Origin: a virus | IMG/VR virus record: IMGVR_UViG_3300022890_000019 | Span: 1-64,000 of that record | Strand: one strand, 5' to 3' | DNA length: 64,000 bases | In this document: piece after piece, positions 24,504 to 46,576 of the stretch | How positions within the stretch are numbered: position 1 is the stretch's first letter | Layout of the letters: every line of letters begins with the position of its first letter | The notes under the pieces: generated by a model | What the model saw: only the letters and a program-made list of their open reading frames with translations | Told to the model about the DNA's origin: nothing | The model's database searches: none | Translations under genes and position numbers: made by a program

Positions 24504-24519
24504 AATAGTGTAATTTATA

Positions 24520-24550: not shown

Positions 24551-27500
24551 CTAATAATCTGATTCTTTAACATCTCTGATTCCTAAACTAGGGAATGGGT
24601 CACTAATAGATCCTATAGCTGTTCTGTATTTTAGAATGTCTTTTACCTTCTTAGGACCAAAAGTAGCATCAACAATATCTAGTAAAATAGAAGTTACAGG
24701 GAAAGGATTTAAGAACCAGTCATAAGAAATCATCATCATATTAAGATCTTTGTACATCCAGTTTAACTTGATAAGCTTTTTGTCATTATCTTTTCCTACC
24801 ACAGCTCCACTAAGAGCAATTAAGAGAGAAAATACAGCAGTCTTAATAACAGTACGTGCTAAATTAAGTCTTCTCATAGGAGTCTGATTTTTCCACCAGG
24901 AGTCTAAGCCTTCATTCCTCATATTGGCTATTCCCTGTACAGCACCTACGAAGCTCTGCCATGCACCTTCTATCTCTATCCAATCTCTCTGAGTAACCCA
25001 CTCACCATTTTCTAACTGTATTGCTTTAAAGCCTGCTCCAAAAGAAGTTTTTCTTGGAGATGCAAAAAGACCTGCATTCCATATTTTATCTGCTGAGAAT
25101 ACTCTAAACTGAGAAGCAGCAGCACCTAGATAGTCATTACCTAATAACCACTTAGCAGTATTGTCCATACTACCTATAATAAATTTATCTCCATACCATT
25201 TTAATTGTTCTGAAGCTAGGGTATGATCATGTCCTCGATCTACTTTGGTAGCATCTTCTTCCATAAGACCCTGATCCTTTAACCTATTTTTAAGACCGTT
25301 TGGACCTTCTACTAGTACCTCTTGCTCTTTAGTCTGGGTACCATCTTCATTATAATATCTTTCGTCTTTTTTGATATCATACTGTATGTCTCCTTTTTCA
25401 TTAAGAGAATAAGCATCCCAACTACCCTCATGAATCATCCATCCTGCCATACCTACTAATCTAGCTTCTGCATCAGAAGCCCAGTTAGTGATATGAGCCC
25501 ACTGATCATTAAGAATATTCCCTTTGTTAGCTACATTAAGCCATGGACTATCTATAAGGTCTCTTTCTGTACGATTTACTAACTGGAACATAGCACCGAG
25601 TCTTCTAGCTTTTTTGAAGTTAGTAGCTACTTCATATCTTGCTTTATTAACATCTCCTGTAGTAGGCAGATAGATTTTTTGTGATTCATCTAATCCTATA
25701 TTTGCAATAGAGGCAGCTAAAGCATTTATCTGTTCACTCATTTCATTCCATATACCTGACTTAGCACCTATAGTCCACTTGTATCCTAGAGAGATCATAC
25801 TGAATGCACTAAGAGTAGCTCTAGCAAATGTTTTAACATCTACTGTTACCCCACCGGGAAGAGTGATCTTAACAGAAGTATCTTCATTCTTTTTCATAGC
25901 TAACCTATTGCTAAACATTTCAGCAAATCTTCTGTTGTTTACCATGAAGTCTTTAGAGTTCTTAGTAGATTCAAAGTATCCATAGACAGCATCTACATCA
26001 TTAAAAGCAGGCATATATCTATTTTCATATTCTTCTGTGCGGATCCCTTCCAATGTGTAATAGTTAATTATCTTCTCTAGGTTCGTACTTGCTAGCATAT
26101 TTTTAGATAAGTCTGCTACCGTTAAGCCATTCTTAGTATATAATAGTCCTGCTTGTTCATAAAGCTTATCCTTACTATTCATCTGTGAAGCAAAAACATT
26201 ACTGATAGTATTCATACCGCTAGTGAAAGCCATACGACTTTTATCATTTAAGTTGTCATCGATAAACTCATCATAGTTAACAAACCTTTGACCCATCCTA
26301 TCCCAGGCAGCTTTGAAGTTCCCTGATAACAATGTTTCATTTAGTCCTTTAGAGATAATAACCATAGTTCCCTTTTCTACAGATTCATCAAACTCTTTAG
26401 CAACCTCTGCCTTACTGATCTTTGAATTACCGAAAACATCTTTACCTTTTATATCACTTGTTCTACTATGATACCAGTTATCGATAGTCCTCTGACGGAA
26501 TGTCTTCCATACTACCTCCATCAGTGCTTTGTCATCTTCATTATGCTTAGGATTATTAAAGTCTAATATAGGAAGCATTATAGGTACAGTCTCCCCTTTC
26601 TTATAGGTTTTAAGACCTACCTTCTGGTCTTTCTCAAGGGTAAGGGTAGTGTGCTTAAATAAATGCTTATAATAAACACTACCTTCATCTTTAATTAGTG
26701 TTTCAGCAGCTACCTGTGGATGTAAAGCAATATAATTTTTGGCTACTTTCTGTGCTTTATCATATATCTGATTATGTATCTTCATGTAACGATCTACGAC
26801 TATAGAATTAACAAGTCTACCTTTAGATACTAGCATCTGTAAAAGATCATCTCTTACATTGTGGATAGGTACAAGATTCTTTTCGAACTTATTCATATCC
26901 TTGATAGAGTTTTTAAAGAAAACAGCTCCATAGCTTTCAAGTTCTAAGATACTCATAGAGACAAGAAGATCTTCATGATCTTTTTCTTTTTTATCTCTAT
27001 TCCTGCCCCGTAAATCTTTCTGCAGTGCTCTTAATGCTTTTACCTGATCATGAACAGTAGTATTCCTATCCATAAATAGCGTTGAGAGGCTTTCTGCTCT
27101 ATTGACATATCCATATCCATACTTGCGATATCCTTCATCATCCATAACTTTCTTTAGATACATCTGGAACCTTCTTACGAAAGACTGTTCGTATTTTGTA
27201 CTATCAGAGATTTTCTTGTCTGTGAATATATCTTTAACATCATCATTAACTAGGTTATTTAACCATTCATCTTGCTGAGACAGTACATTCATATTGCTAA
27301 ACATATCCTGGATGTCTAACATCATATAAGACTTAACATTGCTAGGTTGTATTTCTAGCACTCCCATGCCTCTGAACTTAACCTTACCACCACTAGCCTT
27401 CATCATGTTCATTATAGACATAGAGAGGATAGCTCTTCTGATATCGTATGCTGAGTTACTCCAAGTACCACCAGCTTCTATAAACTTATTATCTGTCATC

Positions 27501-30500
27501 ATAGTACCTAACAGTCTATTCCTATTTGCCGGTGCAAAAGGAACTTTGTCTTGTAAGGAGAAGGTAGTAACATCAAGGATAGAGAGATCTACAGTACCAT
27601 CGTCTTCGATACCGTGAATGGTAATCAGTGGATCAAAGCCTTCAAAGGCGCTATTGTATAATGCCCTGACAGCCTTAATATCGCTGTTTTTAAGGTCACT
27701 ATACTTCATTACAGTTTCAATCTTATCACCCAGGCCAAGATAGAAAGCCATATCTGTTACAGCTTTCTCGCTATATACATTACCAAAGGCCTTTTTAGCT
27801 GCATCATAGATAGTTTCCTTCTGGTCTATCACTAGGTTAATAAAGTTCTGTACATTGTTCTTATAGGATACCTCGAAAGAGTTAATATGAGGAACAATAT
27901 CTTTTTCTATAGCAGCCTCTAGCTGTTCATCAGTCATCGTATTAGGATAGGCAAAAGTCTTATCTAAGCTATGGAAGACATAGTTACCTGCATCATCGGT
28001 ATAGCTCTTCATCTTATGAAGTGTCGTTCTTACAAATTCTTCTGTGTTAAGCTCACCCATAGTATGTCCATACTCTGAATAAGGATTCACTATAGCTGCA
28101 AAGTCCTTAGTGGTATTTACTCCTTCTTGTAGGTAGAACTTATTACCTTCTTCTAGGGACCTGTAAGCGTCATCTAGCTGCCATATGTCATAGTTTACTG
28201 GATCAGTACCGTACGTTTGCCTACCAGTCTCGAGGAGGAAGTCTGAGACCTTACCTTCAGTGAATATCTTATCTAGCTTCTTCCTAAAAGGAAAGAATAG
28301 ATCATGAAGTGAATTGTTAACAAGTGTGTTGATAGAGGTTGCTATATTCAGTAAAGCATCTAAAGAGGTATTATCAGTAAAAAAGTCTCTGATACTCTCT
28401 TTAAGCATCACCTTCATAGCTGTATTCCTGTTGATTATCTGTGAAAGGATGGCCAGTACCTCATGAGTTACATCACCATCGGTAGTAGGTCTATTGTGTT
28501 CTTTAAGCTTTCTTACTACATGGTCACGGATAGGTTCTATCAGCTTATCTCCATTGTTAGCAGAGTCTATGATAGTGTTCTTAATAGTATTCCAGGTAGC
28601 AGGATCATTCATTATCATTATCCCATTCCTGAAATGCTGAAACTCATGGACAGGCATAGTAAAAGAGAACTTCTCTACATTCATATGTATACCATCACCG
28701 TCAAACATTCCAGAGGCTCCTTTTAAAGACTCAGTAGTACCTTCTGTAATAGGTACTCCTGTTACTTTTTCCTTTAAAGCATCCATCCACCGTTGTGCTG
28801 CCTTAGTTGACAGTCTACCTAGACTATGCTTTTTAAAGTCTATCATAGTATAGCGAGTCATAGACCCTTCTTTGCCTACATACTTGCTTAAAGCACTCAT
28901 AGACTTGTTGACAAACTTCTGTGCTTCTTCGGATCCTTCTATCTCTCTTACTAGTTCACCTTCTACAGTAGCTATAAACTCACTGTCTCCTTTCTTAATT
29001 TTATACTGTGCTTTTTGATTCTTCTCTTCCTGCTGTTTAGCTATCTTAATCTGATAGTTTTCCTTAGCTTGCTCGATCTGTTCTTCTGAGAGATCAGCTT
29101 TCACCCAAACAACGTTCGTTGGCTGTATTCTGAGGGCTCTGATCAACGTTCCCTCCTCAGTGGTATATAACCCTTCCAGACGGTCTACGTTCATATTAGC
29201 GTAGCTGTGTCCTCTGACATATGATAATGGTACCTGCTGGTTGTCTAATAGAAGATCTAGCTTCTCAGGACTCATCTTTACTATCTCCATAGTAGAAGTC
29301 ATATCCTTGACAGTATCAAAGCCACCTCTCTCACCGATTAGATATTCATAGTCGTACTTCTCAAAAGCATTACCGAAGAGATCCTGATCATTTTTTATCC
29401 TGGCAGTGAAGTTAGCAGTAAACCTCTTAAAGTCTTTACGCTTCATAATAGTCTCAGGGAAGATACCTAGGTCTCTAGCCTTACGGGTGAGGAAACTGCT
29501 CATACCCTCTTTATGCTGTACCCACTTGGTAAACCTCTCTACAAGGTCGGTAAGCCTATTCATATTCTTAGGCATCCACTCCATCTCTGCCTTAGTCATC
29601 TCAAGACTCATAGCTAAGCCATCTTCACCATAGTAGTGTTCTGTACCCATGATTTCATTGATACTTCCTTTACGGTAGTTAAAGCCTGTATTGATAAGCT
29701 GGTTGACCCTGTATAGCTCTTTTAGGTATTTAGGTAACCTGTCGAATTCTATAGCTAGATCTGATAGCTGCTGCTCGCTGAGGTTAAAGGCATCTGCTAG
29801 CCTGATATATTCTTTCCCCTCTTGTCCTTGCAGAACAAGGTTAGCGATAAACTTATTATTCTTGATAGCATCATGAAACTCATTGGTATAGTCTATCCCT
29901 ATAGCCTGTATAGCTCTGGAAGCATCACCGAAGTTCATAGTAGACATACTCCTGATAAGGTCATGAAACTGTGGGAACTGCCTTACAAAGAGTGTCCTTC
30001 CTTCTACATTATCTAGTGCTACCGTCTCGTAGTTAGACTCAGGAGAAAAATAGTTACCATCAATATCCTGAAGAGGTACTGCGATGTTAAACTTCCTTCC
30101 AGTAAATGATCTCTTAAAAAACTTATCCAGGAACAACTGCTGCATACCAGACTTAAAAGTATAAAACTGCTTTGCATAGTTAAAGACATTGTTAAGTTGT
30201 CCTTTCAAATAGTTAGGAGCAAAATAATCCCAGATCACTTTGTTGTCTTCCAGGAAAGTCTTAGAAGCCACCTCTCTCTGGTTGTTGATCTCATTATAAT
30301 AATCTTTAAAGTGTGTGCGTCTTACAAATTCAGAGATGTTAATAGCCTTGGCTATTTCTAGCTCATAGTCCAATAATTTCTCTGCTTCATTGTTAGCTTC
30401 ATCAAATTGTGAAGATATAAGCCTGGAATATTTATTATCCAGTTTCTTAAAGTTCTCTATATGACTCTCTGCATTCCACTCAGCACCTTGCATAAACTCC

Positions 30501-33500
30501 TCGTAAGTCATCCCTAGATACTTAGAAAGCTCGTTCTCTGCCTTATAGAGGTCAAAGTCCATTACTGGTACTCCATTGCGTAAAGCTACAAAGCGAGTCA
30601 TCCTACGTAAAGCTTCTGCTGTGAAGACGTATTTTTTAAGCTCTGTAAGGACCTGATAGTTTTCTCTTCTCTCCTGCTCACTCTTTATAGCACGTATGTC
30701 TCTGGACAGCTCTTCTATAAGATTCATGTCCGGTGGAGTGTTCTCATCTACCTTTTCAGCTTCAGTAAGTTTTGTCTCTAAAGCTTCTCTCTTAGAAAGT
30801 AAAGATTTGTTGCTGTCAGTATTTTTACTTCTCTCGTTAAGGACCATCTCTTCAGCTACCAGTTCATATACCTGTTCTGCCTCAAAAACTTCTAAGCTGT
30901 TCTGGAAACTTCTTTGTGTATAGATCTTCTCTACTACAGGATGTTCGAAGAATGTAGCTATCTCCTGGTTGCTCTTACCGTCAGCAGTCATTACAGCTAC
31001 CACGGGAACAGCTTCAGCAGTGATACCTAGCCTACCTAATACAAGCTCTTTGGCATTATCTAAGGCTACCTGCATCCAATTACCTAAATTGATAAATGGA
31101 GATGTGCTCCACTGCTCTTCGTCAAACAGTGAGAGGTTTCTTAACCCCGGAGCATTATTTCTGATAAAGGTCTTTCCTAGCTGTGCCAGGTAAGAGACTC
31201 CTGAGAGAGACATGGCCAAGATACCTATAGCCTTGTTACCTTCACTAGCAGTTTGACTACTATCAAGGTAAGAGGCAAAATCATTATCTCTTCCATACTT
31301 TCTTTTCTTTTTATCTACAAGTTCCTTTAAGCCTTTTACATCTGACTTAATAAATATCTTACTAGCATTAGCAGGGTCCTGGTATACATTGTCTATCTCA
31401 TCAAGGATAGCGTTACGAGCACCACCCTCTCCTTCGATAGCTAACTTACCATCAGCAAACTCTCTCATATATACCGTTAACTGGTCAATATCCTGGTCAG
31501 CATTGTTACGGATGTTCATCTCTACAGGAACATAAGCTGTGTTACCATTGTCATTGATAAAAGCTGTGATCTCTAATATAGAAGCACTGCCTAACCTATC
31601 TGCAGGTACACGACCTGAATATACTTTTAGAGACTCTTTGAAGTTTCTAAAGTAAGACAGTGGATCTTCTGGACTGTTTCTAAATATAGGAGAACTCTCT
31701 TTGTTGATAACAGAGCCACCTTCAGCTAAAGTCTGTAAGAAGTCTATAAACTCATCATCGTTTAGGTTACGTACATTCCAGGATAACACTTCTCCATTAG
31801 CTTCTGCTTCTATAGTAAAGACATCGTTAAGAGTTTCATCATTCTTTATACCAAACTCTCTCATGTAAGGATAAGGCATTACCGTCTGTCCTCTCTGAAT
31901 ACCTTCATTGCCAGCAGTCATATCTTTTAAGTCTGCAGGAGTATATCCGAGATCTATAAGGTCTTCTACTGACTCTATAGTGCTATTGGTAAACCGTTCT
32001 ATCTCTTGTAGAGTATAAGGAATCCCATTCTCATAATAAAGCTGATAACCATAGGAAGAAGACTGGTTTACACGTAAGCCTTTAAAAGAGGTACGTATAG
32101 CATTGTCGTTTACAAAACTCCTATAAGCCTGTTTTAACTTCTGTGCTACTTCAGGAGAATGTATAATGCCAGGGTTGTTGATAACATTGTTGATAAGGTC
32201 AGTGTATCCTGTGATAAGACCCATCTGACGTATAGCCTGTAAGCCTCTCTCTCTGAGGAAAGAAACAAACTTCTCTATATCCTGTTCGTTAAAGGCTGCT
32301 TCTGGTTTGTTAGCCTCTATACCCATCAAAGTATTTATCCTAGCCTTACTCATAGTATAAAGCTCTTCTTGTAATATCCTTATCCTCTTACCTCTGTTTA
32401 GGTTACTAGCACCTATGCCCATATAGGATAGATTCTGTGAAGGAGGAGCCTGTCTTTGTACCTTGTTAGTCTCTTGGTATGGATTTAACACTATACGCAG
32501 AGAAGAGTTGTCAAAATCTCTTGCTATGAGATCTTTCTCTTCAGAAGAGTAAGGATCATACATGTTCACATAGTTGACAGTCTGCTTCTCTATAGTCTCA
32601 TCAGCAAATCCTCTTGGAGTACGAGCCTTTATCTCTTCAGAGAAGTTACTCTCTTCTACGATCCAGTCTCTTAGGTTCCTAAATGCTTTCTGTGCATCCC
32701 TGCTACCAGCATGACCTGTAGCTTCATAAAGTTCTTTGAATTTAGCATAGAGGTCTATATCATAGTTCTCAAAGTCTTTTCTCATAACCTTTGTGACATG
32801 ATCTAATAGATCTTTTTGCATCTGACGTACAGGAAGTGTCTGTTCGTAGGTCTGAGAGCTGAAAAAATTCATAGACTCTTTTTCCTGGTACTGATCACCA
32901 TACTGAAAATCCATACGATTATCCAGAGTCTTGACTCTTGTCTTGTCAATAGGACCATACTGATAATCTATACCACTTTTCTCCATAAAAGATTCCCAGA
33001 GCATAAACCCATTCACACCACCGTCATCATTTTCTATCCATTCACCGGTCGTTGCATCTTCTTTGTACATGGTACTAACCATTATCTCCTTACCCATAGC
33101 AGGGAGACCATATTTAGTATTTACTACAAGCTTACTACCACCAGTTGCTTTAGATCCTGATCTCTTAACCTTATCAGCAGCATCTTTATGGTTCTGTACA
33201 TTACCAAAGGCAAACTCTCCTACCGCATTGTTAACGATATGGTATGCATAGAAGTGAGCTTTGTAGACAGGATTCCATATTATATTCTCTGTAGTAGTTG
33301 TGACTGTGATAGGAGTCTCGGAAACACCATAGCGATTTGCTGAAATAGACATCTCTTCCATGTGCTCTTCCATCTTCTCTGTATAGAAGTAACCCATCTT
33401 ACCTTCTATAAGGGTTTTTACGTCGTTTTGTTGACGATATCCTATTTGTGATAGCTTACCTGCATATTCCCTATATAGTGGAAAGAACAGCTTATCTCTT

Positions 33501-36500: not shown

Positions 36501-39500
36501 AATACCAGATGAAAGAATTCGTGCTTAGGAGTAGTGTATTTAATACCTTTTTTATACAAGGCTAGTTTTATCCTACCATTATACATTAACCCGTGGATGT
36601 CCATACCGTCAAACTGAAGGTTAGGAGTAATATCATTCTTTACCTGTTCCCAAATAGAAGGGTGAGCTATCTTTTCGAATAGTTCTCTTACCGCAGCTAC
36701 AGTTACAGTACGTGGCTCTATGTTATCAGTCTTTATTTCAAACCTAGGTCTCTTAGCACCTTTCTTACTTGCAGGTCCATCTGAACTTTTAGGAGTCTTA
36801 TTAGTAATTTCTTCGTTAACGTCAACAAGTCCATCAGTAGATATATTTACATATGGAAAGTGTATAGCCTCTGCACTGGTAACGATATTCTCCATCTCAC
36901 TAGGTGATAACTCTCTGGTACTTGTGCTTAGGTCTATAGTATACGGCTGGTATAGTTTGTCTATCTGTAGTCTTAGGTTCGCTGCCTCACCGGTAACGTC
37001 ATCTTTATATAGCTCTGTCACCTGGTCCAGGAATGCATCTAGTACGTCAAGCTTTATCTGTGCATCGGTACGTACATTGTCTGAATCTAAAAGGAAGATA
37101 TCTCTGTTTACCCTTACATTGACTCTACCACCTACCTTTTCAAAGTAGGTACCAAAGAAGTCGTTAAGAGCTTTGTTATTAGTAATGATGCTTAGGTTTT
37201 GTGCGAAGACATTCTTCCAGAACATCCTGTTAAGTTCACTACCAAAGAAGCTATCCTGTTCAGAGGCACGGATATCTTTTAGGCTCTGCTTGTCCTCTTT
37301 GATCTTCTCATGCATCCTCTTAGAATTCATCTTCCCAAGGTTGTTAGTCTTAAAGATCACATAGGCCTCGTTAGCAGTACTGTTTACATCACCTTCAGAG
37401 AACTTATACTTTAAGAGTAGTCCTACCCTACCACTACCATAGAATGTCTGTACTATCTTATCAGAGAAAGTAACCATTTGTCCGGAAAGTGTATTCTCTA
37501 TATGAGCCATAAACTCAGCAAAAGTTCTAAGAGGACCTTTGTTATAGATTACATTACCCTCGTTGATATCATTTTCTAGTATGATCTCTCCAAAGCTGTA
37601 CTCATCGGTATTAGAGTCATATCCTTTCTTTCTCAGAGAAGCCTTATAGTAGTTAACCTCTTTGTTAGCTGTATGGTGTTCTGGGCTTAGCTCCATGCCT
37701 GTATAGCTACTGTCAAAGCCTTCAGATATCTGTCGCTTTATATTCTCTAAGGGCTGTGAGTAATCTCTTATCTGCTGCTTAGCGTATCCTGCATCAGTCT
37801 CCCCCAGAGAAGCTATATATTGATTTCTTTGTAAGATCTCTCTTTCATTACTTGTAAGAGACTCTTCGTTGATAGCACTAACCTTAATAGCTAGCACGTT
37901 GTCAAAGTTCTTCCAGGTACCAGTATTTCTATCTTCCATCAATGCTGACTTTAGATATACTAGCTCAGAAGTTACCTTTCTCTTATAGACCATGTTTAAG
38001 ATAGACACTCTATCCTTACGTAGCTGATCCATATTTACATCAGCTGACGAAGTGTTAAAGACACTATAGATAGTACCCCAAAGCTTGTTACCGTTAAGCC
38101 ACGCCTTAGCTTGTCCTGTGAAGAACGTCTTACCACTCTCTATGTCATCAAGGTCAGTAGTCTCTTTAGGGCCACTGCGAAGGGTATACTCTTTCTCAAA
38201 AGTGTTAAGATCTATCTGCTTGCCACCGAGGTATATTTCATACTCTACCACACCATCAGTAGTTTTCTCTATAATAGAATCTATGATATAGAAGTTTCCT
38301 GTAGAGACTTCATCAGCTACAGCACCTTTAACGATGCTTGGCTTTCCTGGGTACTCAGTAAGATACTTGTTAGTAGTATATCCGGGAGTAGGTGCAGGAG
38401 TCTTGACTATAGGATCCAATATTCCTAGAGCTACCTGTGACTCTTTACCAAAAGGTTCTGCTAAAGTCTTGGTAAGCTCATTATAAGCTTTATATTTCTG
38501 TCCTGTAGCAAAAGAGTCTGCTGTCAGGTCTTTCTGGTTCGTTACACTCTGGGTAATCTTAAAGAAGGCACCAGAATCATCTCCTTTGTTGATAGTATAG
38601 ATACCGTTCTTACGGAACTTGTGAAGGATAGGAGTAGCTATCTTAGTCTTTACCTCTTTAGGTTTCTCCTGTGGCTTGATAGCTGACTCTATACCTATGT
38701 TCTTTAGATACTCATTCATATCATTATAGATATCAGAAGTATCAAGTACCTCTTGCTGACCATCTATCCACCATGAAGGCCTCTGTGTAAGATTTAACCC
38801 TTCTGAGCCTACCAGACCCATAAAGCGAGAAGCTCTCCCTACAGCTGTATAAGCACTGTTAGAAGCTACAAATTCTTTTAACTCTTTACCATTGTATTTA
38901 TATCCCCAGCTATTGAGGTTTACTGCCATGTATACTTCATCTTTACGAAGACCTTGGATGCTTGGAATCTTCCTAGGCATCACATTGGTTGCAGGATCAG
39001 ACATCAACACATATACCTGTCCCTGGAATTCTGTCTTTAGGTTACCATGCTTGTCAAAGAGCTTTTCAACTATCTTCCTAGTTTCCTCTTTGGTGTTAGG
39101 ATCTTTTAGGAGTGCATCTATCTGTTCTGAGTTTAAGAAGACAAGAGCACTGCTTACACTCTCTGGCCTGGACAGTGCATCACTGATAACACTATCTACA
39201 GTATTATAATATTTTCCTCCCTCTCTTCTAGTTATCCCTACTGCTTCATATTCGTTGACATACACTTCAGGATAACCCATAGAGTTATTGTCTAGTCTGT
39301 TCCTAAACGCTTCTGCTAGTCTTTCGATAACAGGATTGCGAGTGGTGAACTTAAACATCACCGGGAACGTACGAGCACCCGTCTTCTGTGCATAGGAGAT
39401 ATTGTTCTTAGCATCAGGAGGCATCATCTGTGAAGCATCACCGAGCCATATGATCTGAAAGCTAGGATCGGTAGTATCTTCATTATAGTTCTTATTGATA

Positions 39501-42500
39501 ACTTGTAGGTTGTCTTTACTAAGCAGAGAAGCCTCATCGACTATCATACCTTCATACTGATTAGGGTTTTGTACCTTACCACCTATGAAGTCTGCCATAG
39601 AGATATTATCAAATACCTGATCAATACCTTCTAAAGAACTGCTTAGCGTATTTAGTACCTCCTGGGTATGGTGTACCAATAAATATTTTCTTTTAGGATC
39701 TTTTTTAAGCTGGTCTCTGATAGCTATAGCTTCAGGAATCATATGCTGACTCTTACCACCTCCAAAGTCTCCTCTCATAAAGATAGAGTTAGCCATAAAG
39801 ATATCTTCTTTCTCTGACACCTTCTTTATATGTTCACTGTTGTTAAATTCTACCTCCCTGACGATCTTGAGCACATCAGCATTATGTCCTAGCAGTTGGT
39901 TTACCACCATATTCACACCCATCATCTGTTCGAAGGTAGAGATATTCTGAGCCGTTACATTGACTTTAGACCTTGCACCCTGAAGAGTATTGATGCTCTC
40001 TCCATTAAGAGCCATGAGGAAGTTTACCAGGTAGGTATATCCTTCATGAGTCTTATATACATCATTGACACTATTTACCTTTAACAGATTATAGTAATAG
40101 TTAAGAGTCTCTCCTACCTTAGTATAGTCAGGAGCATTGAAGTAAGCTGAGTTGTATCTGAACTTCTTAGCAGCAAGTAGCCTGTTTATAAAGTCATAGT
40201 TCACTAGCTGGTCACTGGCACCCTGCATCTTTACAAAAATGTCATGTAGCACCTTCTCACTGTTTAACAAGTCTGCCATCTCCTCTACACCCGGAGGAGT
40301 GTTTTTATCCTTTTGTTCCTGGGTAAGGTCTTTAACATCTTCTAACAGTTTCTTAATATCAGGAACGAGCTCTTCCATCATGGTAGGATCCATCTCATAG
40401 AAGAGAGTCACTACCTGCTTCTGAGCATTGATATGTCCTTGACGTAGCTTGATCTGGAAAAACTTACTAGCTTCTTTAGCTAGCTGTACACTGTTACCCA
40501 TAGTATCGAGATCTATCAACATCTCACTTACTTGCTCTCTGCTATTCCTTAGCTCTGACTCACTGACATAATATTTATATGCAGGTAGCTCTTTATTCTT
40601 TGAAGGTTCTAGCTTAGGATGATCTGATCCTTTAGAGAAGAAGAACATTCCTTTATCAGCAGTCTTCAGAGCATCTCTAACAGCATTGATAGACTTAATC
40701 AAAGAGGCTGCAGTAGACGGGTTAAGGTCAGTACTTGTCTGCTCCCTGAAGTTATCCACCCTAGCCCTCATCTCTTCGAGAAACATCATAGGTACATTGT
40801 CATCATTGCTTAGCTGTCTTATCTTCTCTGTATTCTCATCTACAAAAGCATTCTCTGATAGCTGTGTAATAGCATCTATAGTTTCCCTGGTAGTATTAAG
40901 CTGATCTTTTACATCTTCATTGGTAGGATCAGTAGCATATTCATCGTTAAGTTCTTTCTCAAGTTGTTCTAGCTGCTTCTGATATTTAGCACTTTCTCTT
41001 ATTGCCTGGATCTGCTCTTCATTACCCTGTGCAGGGATACCAAAAGTAATTTCTTTAGAGAGAGCTATTATTGCCTTGCAGACACCCTCAAACCCCTTCA
41101 TAAGGTCTTTCTTTGACTTTAGCTTAGAAGCTTCACCTACGGTAGTAAATAGGTCTTTGTGGGTAACTACAGTCTCATTGTTACTCTTTACAATCTTCTC
41201 TTGCTTTTCTATTTCCTGAGTCTGGTATTCTGTGAGCTTCTGTGAGAACTCTGTAGCTTTCTCATAGGTATCTAAATGATCCAGGATATTCCTTTTGTAT
41301 TTAGTCTGGTACTTCTCTGACTTCCGAAACTTATCGGTAAGCTCTGTACCTTCATTCTTAAAATGTTCATCAGAGACATTCTTAGCATAGAGTAAAGCAC
41401 TATACTTCTCTCTGATAGCTTCATTATATTTCTTACTGTATTTTGTGTCTGCACCTTCAGGAACAGTATACTCTTGTATAGCTTGAGAGACAACACCTAG
41501 CTGCTCATCGATCTTAGCTATCTGTGCAGCATCTTCCTCGGTAGCCTCTTCCTTATTCTCTAATGCTAGCTTCTGCTCAGCAAGACCTTTATAGGATACG
41601 ATAAGATCAGTAAGTTCTTTCTGCATGAGCTTACTCCTACCTATAGCCTCAAGTACTATTGGGTTGTCAATACCAAAATCTTTAACGATACCTTCAAACA
41701 TATCCATAGACTGCATCATACCCTGATATGCAACATCATTCATAGAACCATCAACACTCTCAGGATTTTTTATTTCTCCTTCAGTAGAGATGTAATTTGG
41801 ACCTAAAGACTCTTTGTTATATAGATCTTGAGTAGCCTTTCTTAGCTTATCCATCTCACCAGTTACACCATAATAACCCATAGTATAATCTGCCATAGGA
41901 TTCTTGCCGGCACCCATAGTGAGTCCCATTGTAATACCACCCATAAATCCTGCTACAGTAGACTCTAGTACATTATCTCCTATCCTATTAGATAAGTTCT
42001 CTAAGTAACTCTTATTAGCATCTACAGGACCAAATAATCCTTTTCCTGGTAATAATCCATTCTCTCCATCATATCTTATCTGATCATGGAATGTCTGCAT
42101 AGAGTTCTCTATCATCTGCTGAAAGAATTCTTCTGTTCCTTCTTCACCACCTGCTAAGATAGTTCTAGCAAATATAGTTTTCCCCTCAGAAATAGCTTTG
42201 ATAAAGCCGTGCAACCATAATCTTTTTTGTGTCTTTGTACCTTCTTTAAGATTCTTTATACCAAATTTTTTCATTACCTTTTTAGCTGCAGTTAACCTTG
42301 CTGCCTTATCTACAAAATAACCTGATCCTCTAGCAATAACATTTCTGCCTATAAATCCTTCTGTAAATGTCTCAGAAGCTACCTGTATAGGATACATCCA
42401 AGCGATATCAGCTTCCTCTATCCCCATATCTCTAGCAGTCTGTACAAAGTGATGGCCACTCATTAATCCAAAGACTCCAAAAGATGTCCAGGTAGAAGCA

Positions 42501-43696
42501 AAAGATTTAAACCCATTAAAATTTCTTAATCCCTGTGCTAGTCCTTTTTGTATTACTAATTGGGCAATTACACTACCCATTACTGAAGAGAATCCTTCCC
42601 AACTATTAAACATTCCCTGATTAGCACGTAGAGATTTTCCAAACAGTGCTTTATTCTGAATAGTAGTTTCTCTTTTAGATCTATCAGCCCATTTATTTAA
42701 TCCATAATAATCACCACCAAAAAATAGTTCATTTAGATAATTACTACCCATTTCATCAGCAGTCTCAAAAGTAGCAGCACCACTAGAAAACATATTATAT
42801 GCTTGAAATATTCCATCTTTTATAGCATTCCTTTGAAAAGGAGCAGGCCCCATAGCACTAACAATAGAACTTCGAGTGACTCTAGGATCTTCTACTGGTA
42901 CTTCTAACATAGTAGGTGTACCATCTGGGCCCGGAGCATATATTTTAATAAAATCATTCTTATCTGTAAGAAATAGAGGAATAGTTTTATCAGAATCATC
43001 AGGATCTTCTACATTAACATCTATATCACCATATGTACCTTTCTCTTGAAGAGCATTCATATATGCTACATAACCATCCTTTTGTTCCTGGGTCCTCATC
43101 TTAGGATCATAAACAACATCATCTTTAGTTCCAACAAAGAAATTATCAAGAGCAGCTAACCCTCTTAATACAGTATGTACTCTATCAGATACGGTAGGTT
43201 TCTTTTTTATTATCTTTTTGCCAAATCTGTCAATATAATATCCTTTAGCAAATACTTCTTCTTGAGGACTAAGTAGATTCTGTCCAAACTGATTAACACC
43301 TATAGTTGGAGAGATATAAGTTTGCTCTAAAGAATTTCTATCAATAGACTTAATTCCCATCTCTTGTTTTAAGAAGGTATCATTACCATAAGCAATCCAT
43401 GGAGTAACAAAGTGATCAATCCCATCTTGATGATCTAAATAACCCGTAGAAGCCATATCGTAGATCTTATCAAAGTTCTTTGGATCTATCATAGGAGTAT
43501 CTACAGTATACTTTTCTCTTGCCTTTTCTCTATCCCAGAGAGTCACTACTGCATCATTCTCCTTTAGTGATTGTCTTATTTGATCTGCTGACCATTGAAA
43601 GGCATACATTGGGAAATAATCAAGTGTTGCTTTTGGTGTTGCTTCTTCTTCTCCACCATCACCTATACTATTAACATTTTCAGTATCGTTATTCAT
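24551..43696 (-). CDS. Giant virion polyprotein (6381 aa): ejection-type N-terminus, SF1 helicase-like domain, zincin, crAss-type DNA-dependent RNA polymerase, second zincin
   Basis: GDFGGGKS / IVDEAS / LGDASQ / SIQG / YTAVGRA; HEFFH...E; GRVP...RNNADQDID; HEFQH...E; follows the cargo genes as in crAss-like phages. Confidence 0.85.
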   Translation of the reverse strand: MNNDTENVNSIGDGGEEEATPKATLDYFPMYAFQWSADQIRQSLKENDAVVTLWDREKAREKYTVDTPMIDPKNFDKIYDMASTGYLDHQDGIDHFVTPWIAYGNDTFLKQEMGIKSIDRNSLEQTYISPTIGVNQFGQNLLSPQEEVFAKGYYIDRFGKKIIKKKPTVSDRVHTVLRGLAALDNFFVGTKDDVVYDPKMRTQEQKDGYVAYMNALQEKGTYGDIDVNVEDPDDSDKTIPLFLTDKNDFIKIYAPGPDGTPTMLEVPVEDPRVTRSSIVSAMGPAPFQRNAIKDGIFQAYNMFSSGAATFETADEMGSNYLNELFFGGDYYGLNKWADRSKRETTIQNKALFGKSLRANQGMFNSWEGFSSVMGSVIAQLVIQKGLAQGLRNFNGFKSFASTWTSFGVFGLMSGHHFVQTARDMGIEEADIAWMYPIQVASETFTEGFIGRNVIARGSGYFVDKAARLTAAKKVMKKFGIKNLKEGTKTQKRLWLHGFIKAISEGKTIFARTILAGGEEGTEEFFQQMIENSMQTFHDQIRYDGENGLLPGKGLFGPVDANKSYLENLSNRIGDNVLESTVAGFMGGITMGLTMGAGKNPMADYTMGYYGVTGEMDKLRKATQDLYNKESLGPNYISTEGEIKNPESVDGSMNDVAYQGMMQSMDMFEGIVKDFGIDNPIVLEAIGRSKLMQKELTDLIVSYKGLAEQKLALENKEEATEEDAAQIAKIDEQLGVVSQAIQEYTVPEGADTKYSKKYNEAIREKYSALLYAKNVSDEHFKNEGTELTDKFRKSEKYQTKYKRNILDHLDTYEKATEFSQKLTEYQTQEIEKQEKIVKSNNETVVTHKDLFTTVGEASKLKSKKDLMKGFEGVCKAIIALSKEITFGIPAQGNEEQIQAIRESAKYQKQLEQLEKELNDEYATDPTNEDVKDQLNTTRETIDAITQLSENAFVDENTEKIRQLSNDDNVPMMFLEEMRARVDNFREQTSTDLNPSTAASLIKSINAVRDALKTADKGMFFFSKGSDHPKLEPSKNKELPAYKYYVSESELRNSREQVSEMLIDLDTMGNSVQLAKEASKFFQIKLRQGHINAQKQVVTLFYEMDPTMMEELVPDIKKLLEDVKDLTQEQKDKNTPPGVEEMADLLNSEKVLHDIFVKMQGASDQLVNYDFINRLLAAKKFRYNSAYFNAPDYTKVGETLNYYYNLLKVNSVNDVYKTHEGYTYLVNFLMALNGESINTLQGARSKVNVTAQNISTFEQMMGVNMVVNQLLGHNADVLKIVREVEFNNSEHIKKVSEKEDIFMANSIFMRGDFGGGKSQHMIPEAIAIRDQLKKDPKRKYLLVHHTQEVLNTLSSSLEGIDQVFDNISMADFIGGKVQNPNQYEGMIVDEASLLSKDNLQVINKNYNEDTTDPSFQIIWLGDASQMMPPDAKNNISYAQKTGARTFPVMFKFTTRNPVIERLAEAFRNRLDNNSMGYPEVYVNEYEAVGITRREGGKYYNTVDSVISDALSRPESVSSALVFLNSEQIDALLKDPNTKEETRKIVEKLFDKHGNLKTEFQGQVYVLMSDPATNVMPRKIPSIQGLRKDEVYMAVNLNSWGYKYNGKELKEFVASNSAYTAVGRASRFMGLVGSEGLNLTQRPSWWIDGQQEVLDTSDIYNDMNEYLKNIGIESAIKPQEKPKEVKTKIATPILHKFRKNGIYTINKGDDSGAFFKITQSVTNQKDLTADSFATGQKYKAYNELTKTLAEPFGKESQVALGILDPIVKTPAPTPGYTTNKYLTEYPGKPSIVKGAVADEVSTGNFYIIDSIIEKTTDGVVEYEIYLGGKQIDLNTFEKEYTLRSGPKETTDLDDIESGKTFFTGQAKAWLNGNKLWGTIYSVFNTSSADVNMDQLRKDRVSILNMVYKRKVTSELVYLKSALMEDRNTGTWKNFDNVLAIKVSAINEESLTSNEREILQRNQYIASLGETDAGYAKQQIRDYSQPLENIKRQISEGFDSSYTGMELSPEHHTANKEVNYYKASLRKKGYDSNTDEYSFGEIILENDINEGNVIYNKGPLRTFAEFMAHIENTLSGQMVTFSDKIVQTFYGSGRVGLLLKYKFSEGDVNSTANEAYVIFKTNNLGKMNSKRMHEKIKEDKQSLKDIRASEQDSFFGSELNRMFWKNVFAQNLSIITNNKALNDFFGTYFEKVGGRVNVRVNRDIFLLDSDNVRTDAQIKLDVLDAFLDQVTELYKDDVTGEAANLRLQIDKLYQPYTIDLSTSTRELSPSEMENIVTSAEAIHFPYVNISTDGLVDVNEEITNKTPKSSDGPASKKGAKRPRFEIKTDNIEPRTVTVAAVRELFEKIAHPSIWEQVKNDITPNLQFDGMDIHGLMYNGRIKLALYKKGIKYTTPKHEFFHLVFDYLIDENSRQRLYNATKELLGLPNATEDYLTEWMARDYGYSGLNLDSVKPKQGLWSRFVDFVNKLFNGYTKRVNTLDELFYKMDHGYYRNVQPVHDGGRDIVRMEGESELDEYQADNFNHKAEDGFAKDDTPNTDYIEIFNNQYKVFGNDINKYLNAVADAVIQYTFFSSDLSVDKVVPMTEAIKDVQKEYEEYGNEFADELTSVGIPYSQITDDDAKKLSIVERRNLGWLRLANQEIFTSFIVRLMPGYNPETGRFYKWNKQSTQYNRAGDDANPDQTKSDFMKMQINATRFHQYYYSSNGRLVRNEWDTKDAYAFVNSKDLEKSLKDAGMRVANRLLKDPSLNPVEAFTQELYNLATEAGLDTYKGSNILSFYHRFFEAFTGKPSLSNRINSIDELIKSDGRSNVSQLKLDIQSDLSDFINSLISYNISFMRPKSSFIESKKSGDETVYNIVNSFENTFDNKKKEIIDGISQTLYDKDTRSFREHVKDRLGSGKNAEFEVTSSGISYVKNKQKIKVISYTDGKISFTEAFHDNDSRDKILTYIKNFIGLKNVTDQTIYNMYNNMHHEGARVELNKRTPEYNLENTNTFLAETFMNMFWSASSNLTMLDKIETINKGILRKLDNKAINEEEAKKQEAKQIKELSVPFNQEMSSFRKKMNITDSTIDGFEKVFAGNNVETIKSDVKIYKPVDYYNAFGVIAALEVYNKGIDSDLFSNRPDGTKAWGFKMKSWVFDMFGDGSAWLTDKINNMPKEILDNSIWKNTKGKWTNWIADPKGIRIRSLTIGNGLRVGNRGIVKPGSKDLATINLANFIEGIRKSTDKLQDIFLTMTNIADKELTYITNTDFSFGKGRRLINIDRDSNGNITSANVDEKMISHGIAIEFERANREMQMSQGKFAREIPANNLTKVFPRELWSVKDLKNFNPKSLESFSKTLTDEQAIDLMRSGLRKNKDYFLDGNTVTLGNSILFKVPGYEAIYNHDNYQKFSNNGERFALLNKTERDKLFFPLYREYAGKLSQIGYRQQNDVKTLIEGKMGYFYTEKMEEHMEEMSISANRYGVSETPITVTTTTENIIWNPVYKAHFYAYHIVNNAVGEFAFGNVQNHKDAADKVKRSGSKATGGSKLVVNTKYGLPAMGKEIMVSTMYKEDATTGEWIENDDGGVNGFMLWESFMEKSGIDYQYGPIDKTRVKTLDNRMDFQYGDQYQEKESMNFFSSQTYEQTLPVRQMQKDLLDHVTKVMRKDFENYDIDLYAKFKELYEATGHAGSRDAQKAFRNLRDWIVEESNFSEEIKARTPRGFADETIEKQTVNYVNMYDPYSSEEKDLIARDFDNSSLRIVLNPYQETNKVQRQAPPSQNLSYMGIGASNLNRGKRIRILQEELYTMSKARINTLMGIEANKPEAAFNEQDIEKFVSFLRERGLQAIRQMGLITGYTDLINNVINNPGIIHSPEVAQKLKQAYRSFVNDNAIRTSFKGLRVNQSSSYGYQLYYENGIPYTLQEIERFTNSTIESVEDLIDLGYTPADLKDMTAGNEGIQRGQTVMPYPYMREFGIKNDETLNDVFTIEAEANGEVLSWNVRNLNDDEFIDFLQTLAEGGSVINKESSPIFRNSPEDPLSYFRNFKESLKVYSGRVPADRLGSASILEITAFINDNGNTAYVPVEMNIRNNADQDIDQLTVYMREFADGKLAIEGEGGARNAILDEIDNVYQDPANASKIFIKSDVKGLKELVDKKKRKYGRDNDFASYLDSSQTASEGNKAIGILAMSLSGVSYLAQLGKTFIRNNAPGLRNLSLFDEEQWSTSPFINLGNWMQVALDNAKELVLGRLGITAEAVPVVAVMTADGKSNQEIATFFEHPVVEKIYTQRSFQNSLEVFEAEQVYELVAEEMVLNERSKNTDSNKSLLSKREALETKLTEAEKVDENTPPDMNLIEELSRDIRAIKSEQERRENYQVLTELKKYVFTAEALRRMTRFVALRNGVPVMDFDLYKAENELSKYLGMTYEEFMQGAEWNAESHIENFKKLDNKYSRLISSQFDEANNEAEKLLDYELEIAKAINISEFVRRTHFKDYYNEINNQREVASKTFLEDNKVIWDYFAPNYLKGQLNNVFNYAKQFYTFKSGMQQLFLDKFFKRSFTGRKFNIAVPLQDIDGNYFSPESNYETVALDNVEGRTLFVRQFPQFHDLIRSMSTMNFGDASRAIQAIGIDYTNEFHDAIKNNKFIANLVLQGQEGKEYIRLADAFNLSEQQLSDLAIEFDRLPKYLKELYRVNQLINTGFNYRKGSINEIMGTEHYYGEDGLAMSLEMTKAEMEWMPKNMNRLTDLVERFTKWVQHKEGMSSFLTRKARDLGIFPETIMKRKDFKRFTANFTARIKNDQDLFGNAFEKYDYEYLIGERGGFDTVKDMTSTMEIVKMSPEKLDLLLDNQQVPLSYVRGHSYANMNVDRLEGLYTTEEGTLIRALRIQPTNVVWVKADLSEEQIEQAKENYQIKIAKQQEEKNQKAQYKIKKGDSEFIATVEGELVREIEGSEEAQKFVNKSMSALSKYVGKEGSMTRYTMIDFKKHSLGRLSTKAAQRWMDALKEKVTGVPITEGTTESLKGASGMFDGDGIHMNVEKFSFTMPVHEFQHFRNGIMIMNDPATWNTIKNTIIDSANNGDKLIEPIRDHVVRKLKEHNRPTTDGDVTHEVLAILSQIINRNTAMKVMLKESIRDFFTDNTSLDALLNIATSINTLVNNSLHDLFFPFRKKLDKIFTEGKVSDFLLETGRQTYGTDPVNYDIWQLDDAYRSLEEGNKFYLQEGVNTTKDFAAIVNPYSEYGHTMGELNTEEFVRTTLHKMKSYTDDAGNYVFHSLDKTFAYPNTMTDEQLEAAIEKDIVPHINSFEVSYKNNVQNFINLVIDQKETIYDAAKKAFGNVYSEKAVTDMAFYLGLGDKIETVMKYSDLKNSDIKAVRALYNSAFEGFDPLITIHGIEDDGTVDLSILDVTTFSLQDKVPFAPANRNRLLGTMMTDNKFIEAGGTWSNSAYDIRRAILSMSIMNMMKASGGKVKFRGMGVLEIQPSNVKSYMMLDIQDMFSNMNVLSQQDEWLNNLVNDDVKDIFTDKKISDSTKYEQSFVRRFQMYLKKVMDDEGYRKYGYGYVNRAESLSTLFMDRNTTVHDQVKALRALQKDLRGRNRDKKEKDHEDLLVSMSILELESYGAVFFKNSIKDMNKFEKNLVPIHNVRDDLLQMLVSKGRLVNSIVVDRYMKIHNQIYDKAQKVAKNYIALHPQVAAETLIKDEGSVYYKHLFKHTTLTLEKDQKVGLKTYKKGETVPIMLPILDFNNPKHNEDDKALMEVVWKTFRQRTIDNWYHSRTSDIKGKDVFGNSKISKAEVAKEFDESVEKGTMVIISKGLNETLLSGNFKAAWDRMGQRFVNYDEFIDDNLNDKSRMAFTSGMNTISNVFASQMNSKDKLYEQAGLLYTKNGLTVADLSKNMLASTNLEKIINYYTLEGIRTEEYENRYMPAFNDVDAVYGYFESTKNSKDFMVNNRRFAEMFSNRLAMKKNEDTSVKITLPGGVTVDVKTFARATLSAFSMISLGYKWTIGAKSGIWNEMSEQINALAASIANIGLDESQKIYLPTTGDVNKARYEVATNFKKARRLGAMFQLVNRTERDLIDSPWLNVANKGNILNDQWAHITNWASDAEARLVGMAGWMIHEGSWDAYSLNEKGDIQYDIKKDERYYNEDGTQTKEQEVLVEGPNGLKNRLKDQGLMEEDATKVDRGHDHTLASEQLKWYGDKFIIGSMDNTAKWLLGNDYLGAAASQFRVFSADKIWNAGLFASPRKTSFGAGFKAIQLENGEWVTQRDWIEIEGAWQSFVGAVQGIANMRNEGLDSWWKNQTPMRRLNLARTVIKTAVFSLLIALSGAVVGKDNDKKLIKLNWMYKDLNMMMISYDWFLNPFPVTSILLDIVDATFGPKKVKDILKYRTAIGSISDPFPSLGIRDVKESDY

Positions 43697-43722
43697 TGCG
43701 TTATATTTGGATAATTAACAAT

Positions 43723-45729: not shown

Positions 45730-45814
45730 CTTGTACGTTTTAAGAAGCGTGAATCAATAATTATCTATGTTCTGATGTCTTACCCTATAGAGGGTATATC
45801 GTTGATCTGAGAGC

Positions 45815-46249
45815 CTATTTAACCTTACAGACTAAATTGCGTTGGTGTATGTGATATGCTATAGTTGCATTGTGCATAATAACCTCTCCTAGGATACTCT
45901 TCATACTTAGATATACCTTATCACCTGGCTCACATATCATAGGATCTTCTTTACCATCTCCCATAAGAAGAGGGATACCTTTAGCTACCACGATAGCCTG
46001 TGAAGGGTTCTCCTCTGTATGTAGTCTCCACTCTTTTAGATCACTAGGTCTCTCATCTAGTCCTGGACTCATTACCAGCGTACTCTTAGTAATCTTTGGC
46101 TTAACCCTAAGAACAACATAGGTACCTGGGATAGGCTCTATATCTTTGAATCTGTCTACCAGCTCTTGGATTGTAATCTGTACCTCTTGTTCACTTGACT
46201 TCCTGCTGAACTTGTCAATGAAAATAACTGTTTCTTTTAAATCTCTCAT
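45815..46249 (-). CDS. groES: GroES/Cpn10-like co-chaperonin
   Basis: IEPIPGTYVVLR...AIVVAKG...G...PMICEPGDKVY...IHQRNLVCKV follows the GroES pattern. Confidence 0.75.
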   Translation of the reverse strand: MRDLKETVIFIDKFSRKSSEQEVQITIQELVDRFKDIEPIPGTYVVLRVKPKITKSTLVMSPGLDERPSDLKEWRLHTEENPSQAIVVAKGIPLLMGDGKEDPMICEPGDKVYLSMKSILGEVIMHNATIAYHIHQRNLVCKVK

Positions 46250-46250
46250 C

Positions 46251-46565: not shown

Positions 46566-46576
46566 AGTTGTAGGGT

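Follow-up and report, generated by a model that had tools for sequence, protein, structure and literature searches.

Whether a phage may write as a single gene the transcription apparatus that phi14:2 and crAss001 split into three is a question raised by a very long ORF of the IMG/VR virus record IMGVR_UViG_3300022890_000019. The ORF takes up about 26% of the 74,217-bp record, and was analysed in a window of 64,000 nucleotides corresponding to positions 1 to 64,000. It extends from 24551 to 43696 on the minus strand as a single frame of 6381 codons with no internal stops, and encodes a protein of 727.6 kDa (pI 5.5). At a G+C content of about 38%, a frame of this length cannot be due to chance. 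The first-pass annotation had described it as an uninterrupted 19.1-kb ORF for a virion polyprotein, and all the motifs listed there were located exactly where they had been placed. The ORF probably unites in a single gene the transcription/cargo block of a crAss-like phage. The chain would comprise, in order, an N-terminal part, an SF1B helicase, a poorly conserved linker, a first zincin-like domain (zincin 1), a two-barrel RNA polymerase (RNAP) and a module akin to phi14:2 gp65 and crAss001 gp49, plausibly opened by a second zincin-like domain (zincin 2) and closed by a conserved hydrophobic helix.

By its muzzle and portal sequences the phage is assigned to the crAss-like phages (Crassvirales). 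The muzzle protein (1323 aa; 48911..52882, minus strand) matches the Pfam family crAss_MUZ with an E-value of 5e-33 (114.8 bits, cut-off 27) and a PHROG of virion structural proteins, and the best 15 matches listed for the portal (21-24% identity) all come from crass-like phages or from uncultured phages related to them. Downstream of the muzzle gene, on the same strand, two ORFs of 714 aa (46762-48906) and 668 aa (43723-45729) lie in the interval 43723..48906. No family matches were found for either in Pfam and PHROG. The giant ORF comes next and closes the late/structural block. The two ORFs occupy the position of the cargo genes gp45 and gp46 of crAss001, as indicated by synteny with crAss001 gp44-gp47 and with phage cr50_1 (NC_055868, Suoliviridae, RefSeq). 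The crAss001 muzzle gp44 is similarly followed by the cargo ORFs gp45 and gp46 and then by gp47, and in cr50_1 a 1337-aa structural protein precedes proteins of 673, 637 and 4774 aa, the last being the giant. The same late-block order is found in phi14:2.

Nothing was found in Pfam and PHROGs with the giant protein divided in three tiles, no Pfam match being returned at E <= 1, and phmmer searches of both protein halves against PDB sequences gave no match. The RNAP core that had been postulated from the motifs GRVP and DQDID is well supported by structure prediction. The module spans approximately aa 2620-4890 (29027..35839, minus strand) and corresponds to phi14:2 gp66 and crAss001 gp50. AlphaFold2 (AF2) modelling of aa 3440-4639 (pLDDT 82.8, pTM 0.80), followed by the Foldseek comparison that had been suggested, identified phi14:2 gp66 (6vr4_A) as best PDB match (E 1.5e-17, probability 1.0), with the double-barrel fold present. 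The alignment covers 831 residues (Z 15.6, rmsd 4.8), residues 30-1200 of the model pairing with gp66 851-1924 and the DxDxD motif lying at the equivalent place. The next structural matches are QDE-1 and RDR2 (Z about 10), which are cellular and not packaged, and the beta-prime subunit of cellular RNAPs. The catalytic DQDID (D4067/D4069/D4071; 31484..31498, minus strand) has its three aspartates invariant in 40 sequences, while the second position may be F, Y, Q, N or D, and variants such as DNDGD and DDDID occur among the giants. R4029 and P4031 of the GRVP motif (aa 4028) and the lysines K3589, K3606 and K3704 are also invariant in 40 relatives. The predicted fold thus marks the giant chain as carrying a two-barrel virion-type RNAP.

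At the sequence level, the RNAP family HMM scores 41.6 bits with gp66 and 47.5 bits with gp50, which carries DFDVD at 1483. In default hmmsearch runs the family HMMs did not match phi14:2 gp65-67, and matches were obtained with the filters off only, because sequence identity to the phi14:2 proteins is too low for BLAST and default HMMER. The filters-off searches against phi14:2, crAss001 and cr50_1 proteins covered 4-8 sequences; the bit scores, ranging from 17 to 57, are meaningful, the E-values are not. The clade is also too divergent for searches of deposited genomes, and no match to the RNAP region (blastn and tblastn) or to the helicase region (tblastn) was found in 50,697 deposited phage genomes.

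The P-loop NTPase that had been set at about aa 1309-1625 is part of a domain, aa 1252-1640 (38777..39943, minus strand), which by motifs and predicted fold is a Dda/RecD2-like SF1B helicase. Motifs EQ (1256-57), I or Walker A (GDFGGGKS, 1309), II or Walker B (VDEAS, 1386), III (LGDASQM, 1418), V (SIQGL, 1580) and VI (YTAVGRAS, 1615) follow one another in intact order, and are kept in 36 giants. Residues G1309, G1314, K1315, D1387, E1388, D1420, Q1423, G1582, T1617 and R1621 are invariant in an alignment of relatives. The region is modelled with a pLDDT of 75-90 as a tandem RecA-like 1A/2A fold, retrieving helicases in Foldseek at E-values from 1e-8 to 1e-6 (RecD2 1.7e-8, Dda 3.8e-7). In VIA-align, model residues 1-386 match DSH9 (Z 21.5), T4 Dda (Z 20.5) and RecD2 (Z 18.4). 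The helicase dominates structure searches made with this second AF2 model, 1200 residues long, which are uninformative on the middle region and zincin 1. The Pfam domain AAA_30 (PF13604) is carried by five of the seven relatives of near length; the score of the giant protein itself is below threshold, so that its fold and motifs, not this Pfam model, place the domain in the SF1B superfamily. No shorter proteins akin to the helicase region were found by word-indexed search. A helicase-like match in Flavobacterium phage FPSV-D41 was dropped, as no large ORF surrounds it in the stretch examined.

Two HExxH sites are present in the protein, against 0.08 expected by chance. Their positions are conserved across relatives, and they bracket the RNAP. 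Both motifs previously read as metalloproteases, HEFFH and HEFQH, are conserved together with a downstream glutamate, and by this signature are gluzincin-type sites of putative peptidases. Zincin 1 (about aa 2331-2600; 35897..36706, minus strand) includes HEFFH (2392-2396, nt 36509-36523) and E2431 in the sequence EWMA; H2392, E2393, H2396 and E2431 are invariant. The domain is homologous to the C-terminal HEAFH (2157)...E domain of crAss001 gp47 and to the region of cr50_1 gp059 around aa 1665. With gp47 2049-2325 the family HMM scores 57 bits, HExxH being aligned in HEAFH...EENMAE. A PDB profile match to PPEP-1/Zmp1 is weak and non-significant (E 0.7), with HExxH and EExxAE both aligned, and the AF2 model of the domain is of low confidence (pLDDT about 46-73). 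In zincin 2 (about aa 4960-5110; 28367..28819, minus strand), HEFQH (5017-5021, nt 28634-28648) and E5079 are each retained by 80% or more of 17 sequences. Profile-profile comparison of the two zincins yields an E-value of 4.4e-4 and a probability of 34%.

Zincin 2 lies in the C-terminal module (aa 4891-6381; 24554..29026, minus strand), which corresponds to phi14:2 gp65 and crAss001 gp49 and is common to 30 relatives. The module HMM matches gp65 with 31.4 + 20.8 bits, HEIMH at 245 included. The match to gp49, at 17 bits the weakest of the HMM matches, is only suggestive. The C-terminal hydrophobic helix reported earlier was found at aa 6277-6302 (24791..24868, minus strand), about 100 aa before the C-terminus, with a Kyte-Doolittle value of 2.02. 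Most of the relatives checked have a similar helix about 95-138 aa before their C-terminus, as do gp65, gp49 and cr50_1 gp060.

The remaining parts of the chain are less informative. The N-terminal module (aa 1-1240; 39977..43696, minus strand) combines Gly-rich segments with a long helical part rich in Lys and Glu, and is common to 15 giant relatives in BLAST comparisons. Of the Gly-rich hydrophobic segments announced for this end, the glycine-rich character was confirmed at aa 369-387 and 576-594, but hydrophobicity is weak, as Kyte-Doolittle values of 1.1-1.2 over 19 residues do not reach those of a transmembrane helix. The motif EEGTEEFFQQ (aa 518-527; 42116..42145, minus strand) falls within a family-conserved EExxEE block, and E519, E523, N531 and G551 are among the residues invariant in relatives. 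Compared by hhalign to gp47, gp67, cr50_1 gp059, gp45 and gp46, the module, a putative ejection domain in the first-pass annotation, gave probabilities all <3%. The middle region (aa 1641-2330; 36707..38776, minus strand) is mixed beta/alpha and poorly conserved; it has BLAST matches in five relatives only, and AF2 models it with low to moderate confidence.

Along the transcribed strand, the modules are in the same order as phi14:2 genes gp67 (1797 aa), gp66 (2180 aa) and gp65 (1421 aa), which together sum to 5398 aa compared to 6381 aa, and are three genes in place of one. Like the C-terminal module, gp65 has an HExxH (HEIMH, 245) near the start and a hydrophobic helix near the end. The three phi14:2 proteins lack a Walker A motif and a helicase, and gp67 lacks HExxH. 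In crAss001 the RNAP-associated cargo is made of gp47, gp50 and gp49 (Bayfield et al. 2023), again three genes, gp50 and gp49 being inverted relative to gp47. The crAss001 cargo proteins feature neither helicase motifs nor Pfam matches, and gp49 is devoid of HExxH. A related layout is that of gp059 of cr50_1, a human-gut phage. Annotated as 'DNA helicase', gp059 associates in one chain a zincin (HEAFH, 1665), an RNAP (DFDID, 3154) and an SF1B helicase. The helicase of cr50_1 is C-terminal and follows the RNAP (Walker A at 4275), whereas here it is upstream of zincin 1. The last module of cr50_1 has its own gene, gp060, which encodes 1386 aa without HExxH.

The function of the chain may be sketched from these relatives. 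Orthologues of gp65-67 are virion proteins, fused in some phages in a polyprotein described as 'likely cleaved' (10.1101/2020.03.07.982082), and extrusion in a partly unfolded state has been proposed for the crAss001 cargo (PMC10172136). By analogy with phi14:2, crAss001 and N4, the giant chain would be a late product stored as cargo inside the capsid. As in the characterised relatives, it would then be threaded through the tail in a partly unfolded form, ahead of or with the DNA, and would transcribe early genes after entry. Virion 'polyvalent proteins' processed by zincins are an established concept (Iyer et al. 2017, PMC5512222). Like the giant, they are multi-enzyme chains encoded by late genes, with zincin-like domains predicted to process them; they are packaged in virions and start transcription on entry.

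The two zincins flank the RNAP, each within about 250 residues of a module junction, and may sever the chain at, or close to, points that are gene boundaries in relatives. Zincins are kept, though, where the modules are separate genes, as shown by HEAFH (2157) of crAss001 gp47 and HEIMH (245) of phi14:2 gp65, and cutting at the junctions consequently cannot be their sole role, and perhaps is no role of theirs. It is conceivable, if short of probable, that virions carry the chain whole and it functions without processing, or that cleavage is left to a protease of the host or the prohead. The zincin-like domains would then be directed elsewhere, for instance to peptides of the host envelope or of peptidoglycan, to host proteins, or to the removal of an element blocking the RNAP cleft. 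Drobysheva et al. suggest RNAP activation and/or peptidoglycan digestion for gp65 (10.1101/2020.03.07.982082), and effector roles are listed for such peptidases by Iyer et al. (PMC5512222). The proximity of both zincins to the junctions speaks for cleavage instead, as does the difficulty of threading a globular chain of 728 kDa through a tail, although neither amounts to a test.

For the helicase, a further step is suggested by the activity of gp66, which in vitro transcribes ssDNA or denatured DNA and not native dsDNA, and is self-inhibited in its crystal form (10.1101/2020.03.07.982082). The helicase may supply a single-stranded template to the RNAP, or pull DNA in for it. The Dda-like helicase is tentatively viewed as the missing partner that would let crAss-type virion RNAPs start on the entering dsDNA genome. 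Its joining to the RNAP at two positions in two lineages points to a functional link. There is a parallel in QDE-1, which acts on ssDNA together with the helicase QDE-3 and RPA (10.1101/2020.03.07.982082), but the helicase of QDE-1/RDR2 is a separate protein of another family, whereas here the helicase is fused. If this partnership is real, helicase and polymerase would form a repeatedly selected machine, unwinding or reeling DNA and feeding the template strand, in the manner of QDE-1/QDE-3. It is possible, though doubtful, that the helicase is no partner of the RNAP and is injected to serve some other early step, with genome intake, the clearing of host proteins or defence nucleases off the incoming DNA, and the start of replication as candidates. 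Dda/RecD-type SF1B helicases serve replication and recombination in other phages, delivered polyvalent proteins mix unrelated early functions (PMC5512222), and the cultured phages phi14:2 and crAss001 do without a helicase in the corresponding proteins. The requirement of gp66 for a single-stranded template and the fusion of the helicase to the virion RNAP chain, upstream here and C-terminal in cr50_1 gp059, argue for the partner role.

All the above supposes that the frame is genuine. Sequences from 24300 to 43950 are contained in one Logan contig of about 61 kb in each of three salt-lake metagenome runs (2017, 2018 and 2019; depth 14-39x), with no differences and no gaps in any of the three. 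The source sample may be among these runs, but each was assembled separately. A fourth run yielded fragmentary contigs, also identical to the giant-ORF stretch. No RNA runs turned up. That the 19-kb frame is an artefact, due to chimeric assembly or to errors erasing the stops among three or four genes, is extremely improbable, as its extreme length is the sole reason to raise the question and no supporting sign was found, while identical contigs span the whole ORF in runs of three years and collinear relatives in 46 clusters are likewise 4.7-7.0 kaa long. The giant chain is a real gene, and the assembly fusion that the first-pass annotation wished to see checked is effectively ruled out.

The rarity of the fused architecture, which that annotation implied, did not hold. 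In a survey of ORF lengths among 92 clusters of RNAP-related proteins, 46 are giants of 4.7-7.0 kaa, and the motifs follow in the same complete order in at least 19. Among those relatives of the RNAP that could be detected, no state is more common than the fused giant. Fusion being routine, and known also from the 4774-aa chain of cr50_1, the claim of novelty falls, as the annotation itself had anticipated for such an outcome. The single huge polyprotein state has already been described (bioRxiv 10.1101/2020.03.07.982082), and fused proteins of up to about 6000 aa have been called a hallmark (PMC10136315). The giant ORF is a good example of this known layout, from an environmental salt-lake lineage without close relatives among deposited phage genomes. 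It provides a clean full-length case of the crassvirus cargo/transcription apparatus at its most complete degree of fusion. Modules that are difficult to align from one crassvirus to another have their order and limits fixed in this chain, and zincin 1 is seen to belong with proteins of gp47 type, zincin 2 with those of gp65 type. The chain is also a natural helicase-RNAP construct for testing how such polymerases reach their template.

Cysteine is almost absent from the cargo block. One residue is found in the 6381 aa of the giant and none in the 1382 aa of the two upstream ORFs, compared to 0.8-1.4% in other genes of the phage, and the 46 giant relatives contain 0.036%. This signature lends indirect support to packaging and ejection. 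Virion or ejected proteins are Cys-poor also in crAss001 (gp45-50) and phi14:2 (gp65-67, nearly Cys-free at the end of the late block, as here). Phage N4 gp50, gp51 and gp52 have no cysteine at all; gp50 is like the giant in this respect, but the N4 virion RNAP is a T7-like single-subunit enzyme, not a two-barrel one, and is about half as long. The near-absence of cysteine could serve as a simple sequence flag for phage cargo.

The 6381-aa ORF located on the minus strand at 24551-43696 (hereafter the giant) is a well-verified crAss-like virion RNA polymerase (RNAP) polyprotein. It belongs to a class already known, and its lineage is environmental, without close deposited relatives. The frame is uninterrupted, with zero stops, and encodes a protein of 727.6 kDa and pI 5.5; the gene occupies about one quarter of the 74,217-bp IMG/VR record, the completeness of which is rated 87%. 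The window corresponds to positions 1-64000 of that record. All the motifs listed in the first-pass annotation were found at the residues and nucleotides reported there, on the minus strand: EEGTEEFFQQ (aa 518), Walker A (aa 1309), Walker B (aa 1386), HEFFH (aa 2392, zincin 1), GRVP (aa 4028), DQDID (aa 4067), HEFQH (aa 5017, zincin 2) and a hydrophobic helix (aa 6277-6302, window 24791-24868). Two HExxH motifs are observed, against 0.08 expected by chance.

Thirteen salt-lake metagenome runs contain the ORF's 10-kb core in its entirety (share of sampled words 0.98-1.00). In three runs (2017, 2018 and 2019), each assembled separately at a depth of 14-39x, one contig of about 61 kb covers 24300-43950 without any difference or gap. 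The three runs are not fully independent, because the source sample may be among them. Identical contigs and collinear relatives nonetheless rule out that the ORF is an assembly artefact, and the intact gene described in the first-pass annotation is confirmed. Over the interval 29000-38999 (24 runs), the phage recurs in salt-lake metagenomes from 2017, 2018 and 2019. No sequence difference separates the three runs compared, where depths reach about 39x. This indicates a persistent, abundant salt-lake population, sampled under many study codes that may stem from one campaign.

No family match was obtained for the giant in Pfam, PHROGs and PDB sequences, nor did blastn and tblastn find a match among deposited phages. 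Relatives were therefore needed before parts could be assigned. A word-indexed search with aa 3500-4700 retrieved seven proteins (5288-6416 aa, 21-29% identity), five of which feature Pfam PF13604. An exhaustive phmmer search of 1.84 billion cluster representatives with aa 3700-4890 identified 92 clusters at E <= 1e-3, and in 46 of these the protein is 4682-6991 aa long. BLAST with eight module queries gave collinear matches in relatives. Of the 63 relatives with at least 1500 aa, all match the RNAP core, 41 match zincin 1, 36 the helicase and 30 the C-terminal module. The motifs Walker A, HExxH, DxDxD and HExxH occur in this order in at least 19 giants, and another 15 have the first three. 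A hallmark, according to a 2023 review (PMC10136315), is an RNAP gene of 'up to ~6000 aa'. The novelty suggested in the first-pass annotation is thus not upheld, as the architecture is routine among relatives and has precedents in the literature and in the RefSeq crassvirus cr50_1. In the literature no description was found of a helicase upstream of zincin 1, as in the clade of the window, or of the helicase lying, in cr50_1, on the opposite side of the polymerase.

Residues 3440-4639 of the RNAP module were modelled with AlphaFold2 from a 24-sequence alignment (pLDDT 82.8, pTM 0.80). The top PDB match is gp66, the virion RNAP of Cellulophaga phage phi14:2 (Foldseek E 1.5e-17); VIA-align pairs model residues 30-1200 with gp66 851-1924 (Z 15.6, rmsd 4.8, 831 residues aligned). 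QDE-1 and RDR2 are the next-best structures (Z about 10), and further matches include the two-barrel RNAPs encoded by phages P23-45, P32 and P74, as well as the beta-prime subunit of cellular RNAPs. Across 40 aligned relatives no variation is seen at D4067, D4069, D4071, R4029, P4031 or at three lysines. Position 2 of DQDID varies (F, Y, Q, N, D, M), and the Q found here is nothing special.

The late strand of phi14:2 ends with gp67 (1797 aa), gp66 (2180 aa, DFDID 1361) and gp65 (1421 aa, HEIMH 245), 5398 aa in total. In the structural alignment gp66 residue 1 falls near aa 2620 of the giant, and its end near aa 4890. Family HMMs were run with filters off, and bit scores were relied on because the printed E-values refer to an eight-sequence database. 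Matches were found to gp47 (57 bits, zincin 1) and gp50 (47.5 bits) of Bacteroides phage crAss001 and to phi14:2 gp66 (41.6 bits). The C-terminal-module HMM matched phi14:2 gp65 (31.4 and 20.8 bits, spanning HEIMH as well as the C-terminal end) and crAss001 gp49 (17 bits). The order of the giant is therefore gp47-like, RNAP, gp65/gp49-like; zincin 1 closes the first part and zincin 2 opens the last. The searches gave no assignment for the N-terminal 1240 residues or for aa 1641-2330. Most C-terminal modules checked, among them phi14:2 gp65, crAss001 gp49 and cr50_1 gp060, have a hydrophobic helix about 95-138 residues before the C-terminus; its position is conserved, its sequence is not. Synteny agrees with the crassvirus neighbourhood: a muzzle protein ORF (1323 aa; Pfam crAss_MUZ, 114.8 bits) is followed by ORFs of 714 aa (46762-48906) and 668 aa (43723-45729), in the position of the crAss001 cargo proteins gp45 and gp46, after which comes the giant. 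The portal is similar to crassvirus portals (21-24% identity among the best matches listed).

At zincin 1, H2392, E2393, H2396 and E2431 are invariant, and the site aligns residue-for-residue with the C-terminal HEAFH...EENMAE of crAss001 gp47, and likewise with cr50_1 gp059. At zincin 2, an alignment of the C-terminal module from 17 sequences shows conservation of HEFQH and the downstream E5079. When the two sites are compared profile to profile (E 4.4e-4, probability 34%), HExxH and the Glu helix align, a hint that the sites are paralogues. The sole match of zincin 1 in a PDB profile search is weak (E 0.7), to the HExxH...EExxAE gluzincin PPEP-1/Zmp1, and in the second model, of aa 1252-2451 (overall pLDDT 62.5), pLDDT is low at this site. 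The first-pass reading of the domains is largely right. RNAP and helicase folds are recovered and the HExxH sites are conserved; the zincin fold itself is putative. The proposed self-cleavage is plausible, because the zincins adjoin both module junctions, yet unproven, and is weakened by the retention of zincins in phages with separate genes. The general concept that zincin-like peptidases process polyvalent proteins packaged in virions was formulated by Iyer et al. (2017, PMC5512222).

The second model is confident over the first 390 residues or so (pLDDT 75-90), which resemble SF1B helicases (Foldseek: RecD2 E 1.7e-8, Dda 3.8e-7); a Foldseek-independent search gave DSH9 (Z 21.5), T4 Dda (Z 20.5) and RecD2 (Z 18.4). 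Motifs Q, I, II, III (LGDASQM), V and VI (YTAVGRAS) are present, and their key residues are invariant among the closest relatives. In three close relatives (P0011, P0012 and P0013, 4682-4852 aa) the helicase region matches by BLAST, but the Walker A pattern is not recognisable; some lineages may carry a decayed helicase. Neither a Walker A motif nor a helicase Pfam match was found in gp47, gp49, gp50, gp65 and gp67, and compared with the cultured phages the giant has the helicase as an additional module. In cr50_1 (Suoliviridae), gp059 (4774 aa, NC_055868 65825-80149), annotated solely as 'DNA helicase', carries HEAFH 1665, DFDID 3154 and, at 4270-4760, a Dda-like helicase (Walker A aa 4275). 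A 1386-aa gene follows, and the neighbourhood is that of the giant. The helicase is C-terminal to zincin and RNAP in gp059, and upstream of zincin 1 in the clade of the window; it therefore occurs fused to the polymerase chain in two arrangements. In vitro, phi14:2 gp66 makes transcripts from single-stranded as well as denatured DNA, not from native double-stranded DNA, and it crystallised self-inhibited (10.1101/2020.03.07.982082). Hypothetically, the helicase module may supply single-stranded template to the RNAP.

By analogy with relatives, the giant would be expressed late, packaged as capsid cargo, extruded partly unfolded, and would then carry out early transcription. Cysteine composition supports the proposed cargo role. 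A single Cys occurs among the 6381 residues of the giant and none among the 1382 of the two ORFs upstream, hence one in 7763 over the three consecutive ORFs (24551-48906), against 0.76-1.39% in the other genes of the phage. The mean in the 46 giant relatives is 0.036%. The scarcity is shared by phi14:2 gp65-67 and crAss001 gp45-50, and N4 gp50, gp51 and gp52 have 0 Cys, against 1.1-1.4% in N4 replication proteins. Near-absence of Cys may mark ejected phage proteins in general at the sequence level. In the 1 kb separating the Cys-free cargo-like ORFs (45730-46761), the only ORFs are short ones on the minus strand (144, 104 and 61 aa); the rest of the late block is densely packed. Three minus-strand ORFs downstream of the giant (364, 162 and 698 aa; 20803-24503) have no Pfam or PHROG match. 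Two of the three are Cys-rich (3.1-3.3%), sharply unlike the giant, and are therefore unlikely to be ejected cargo.
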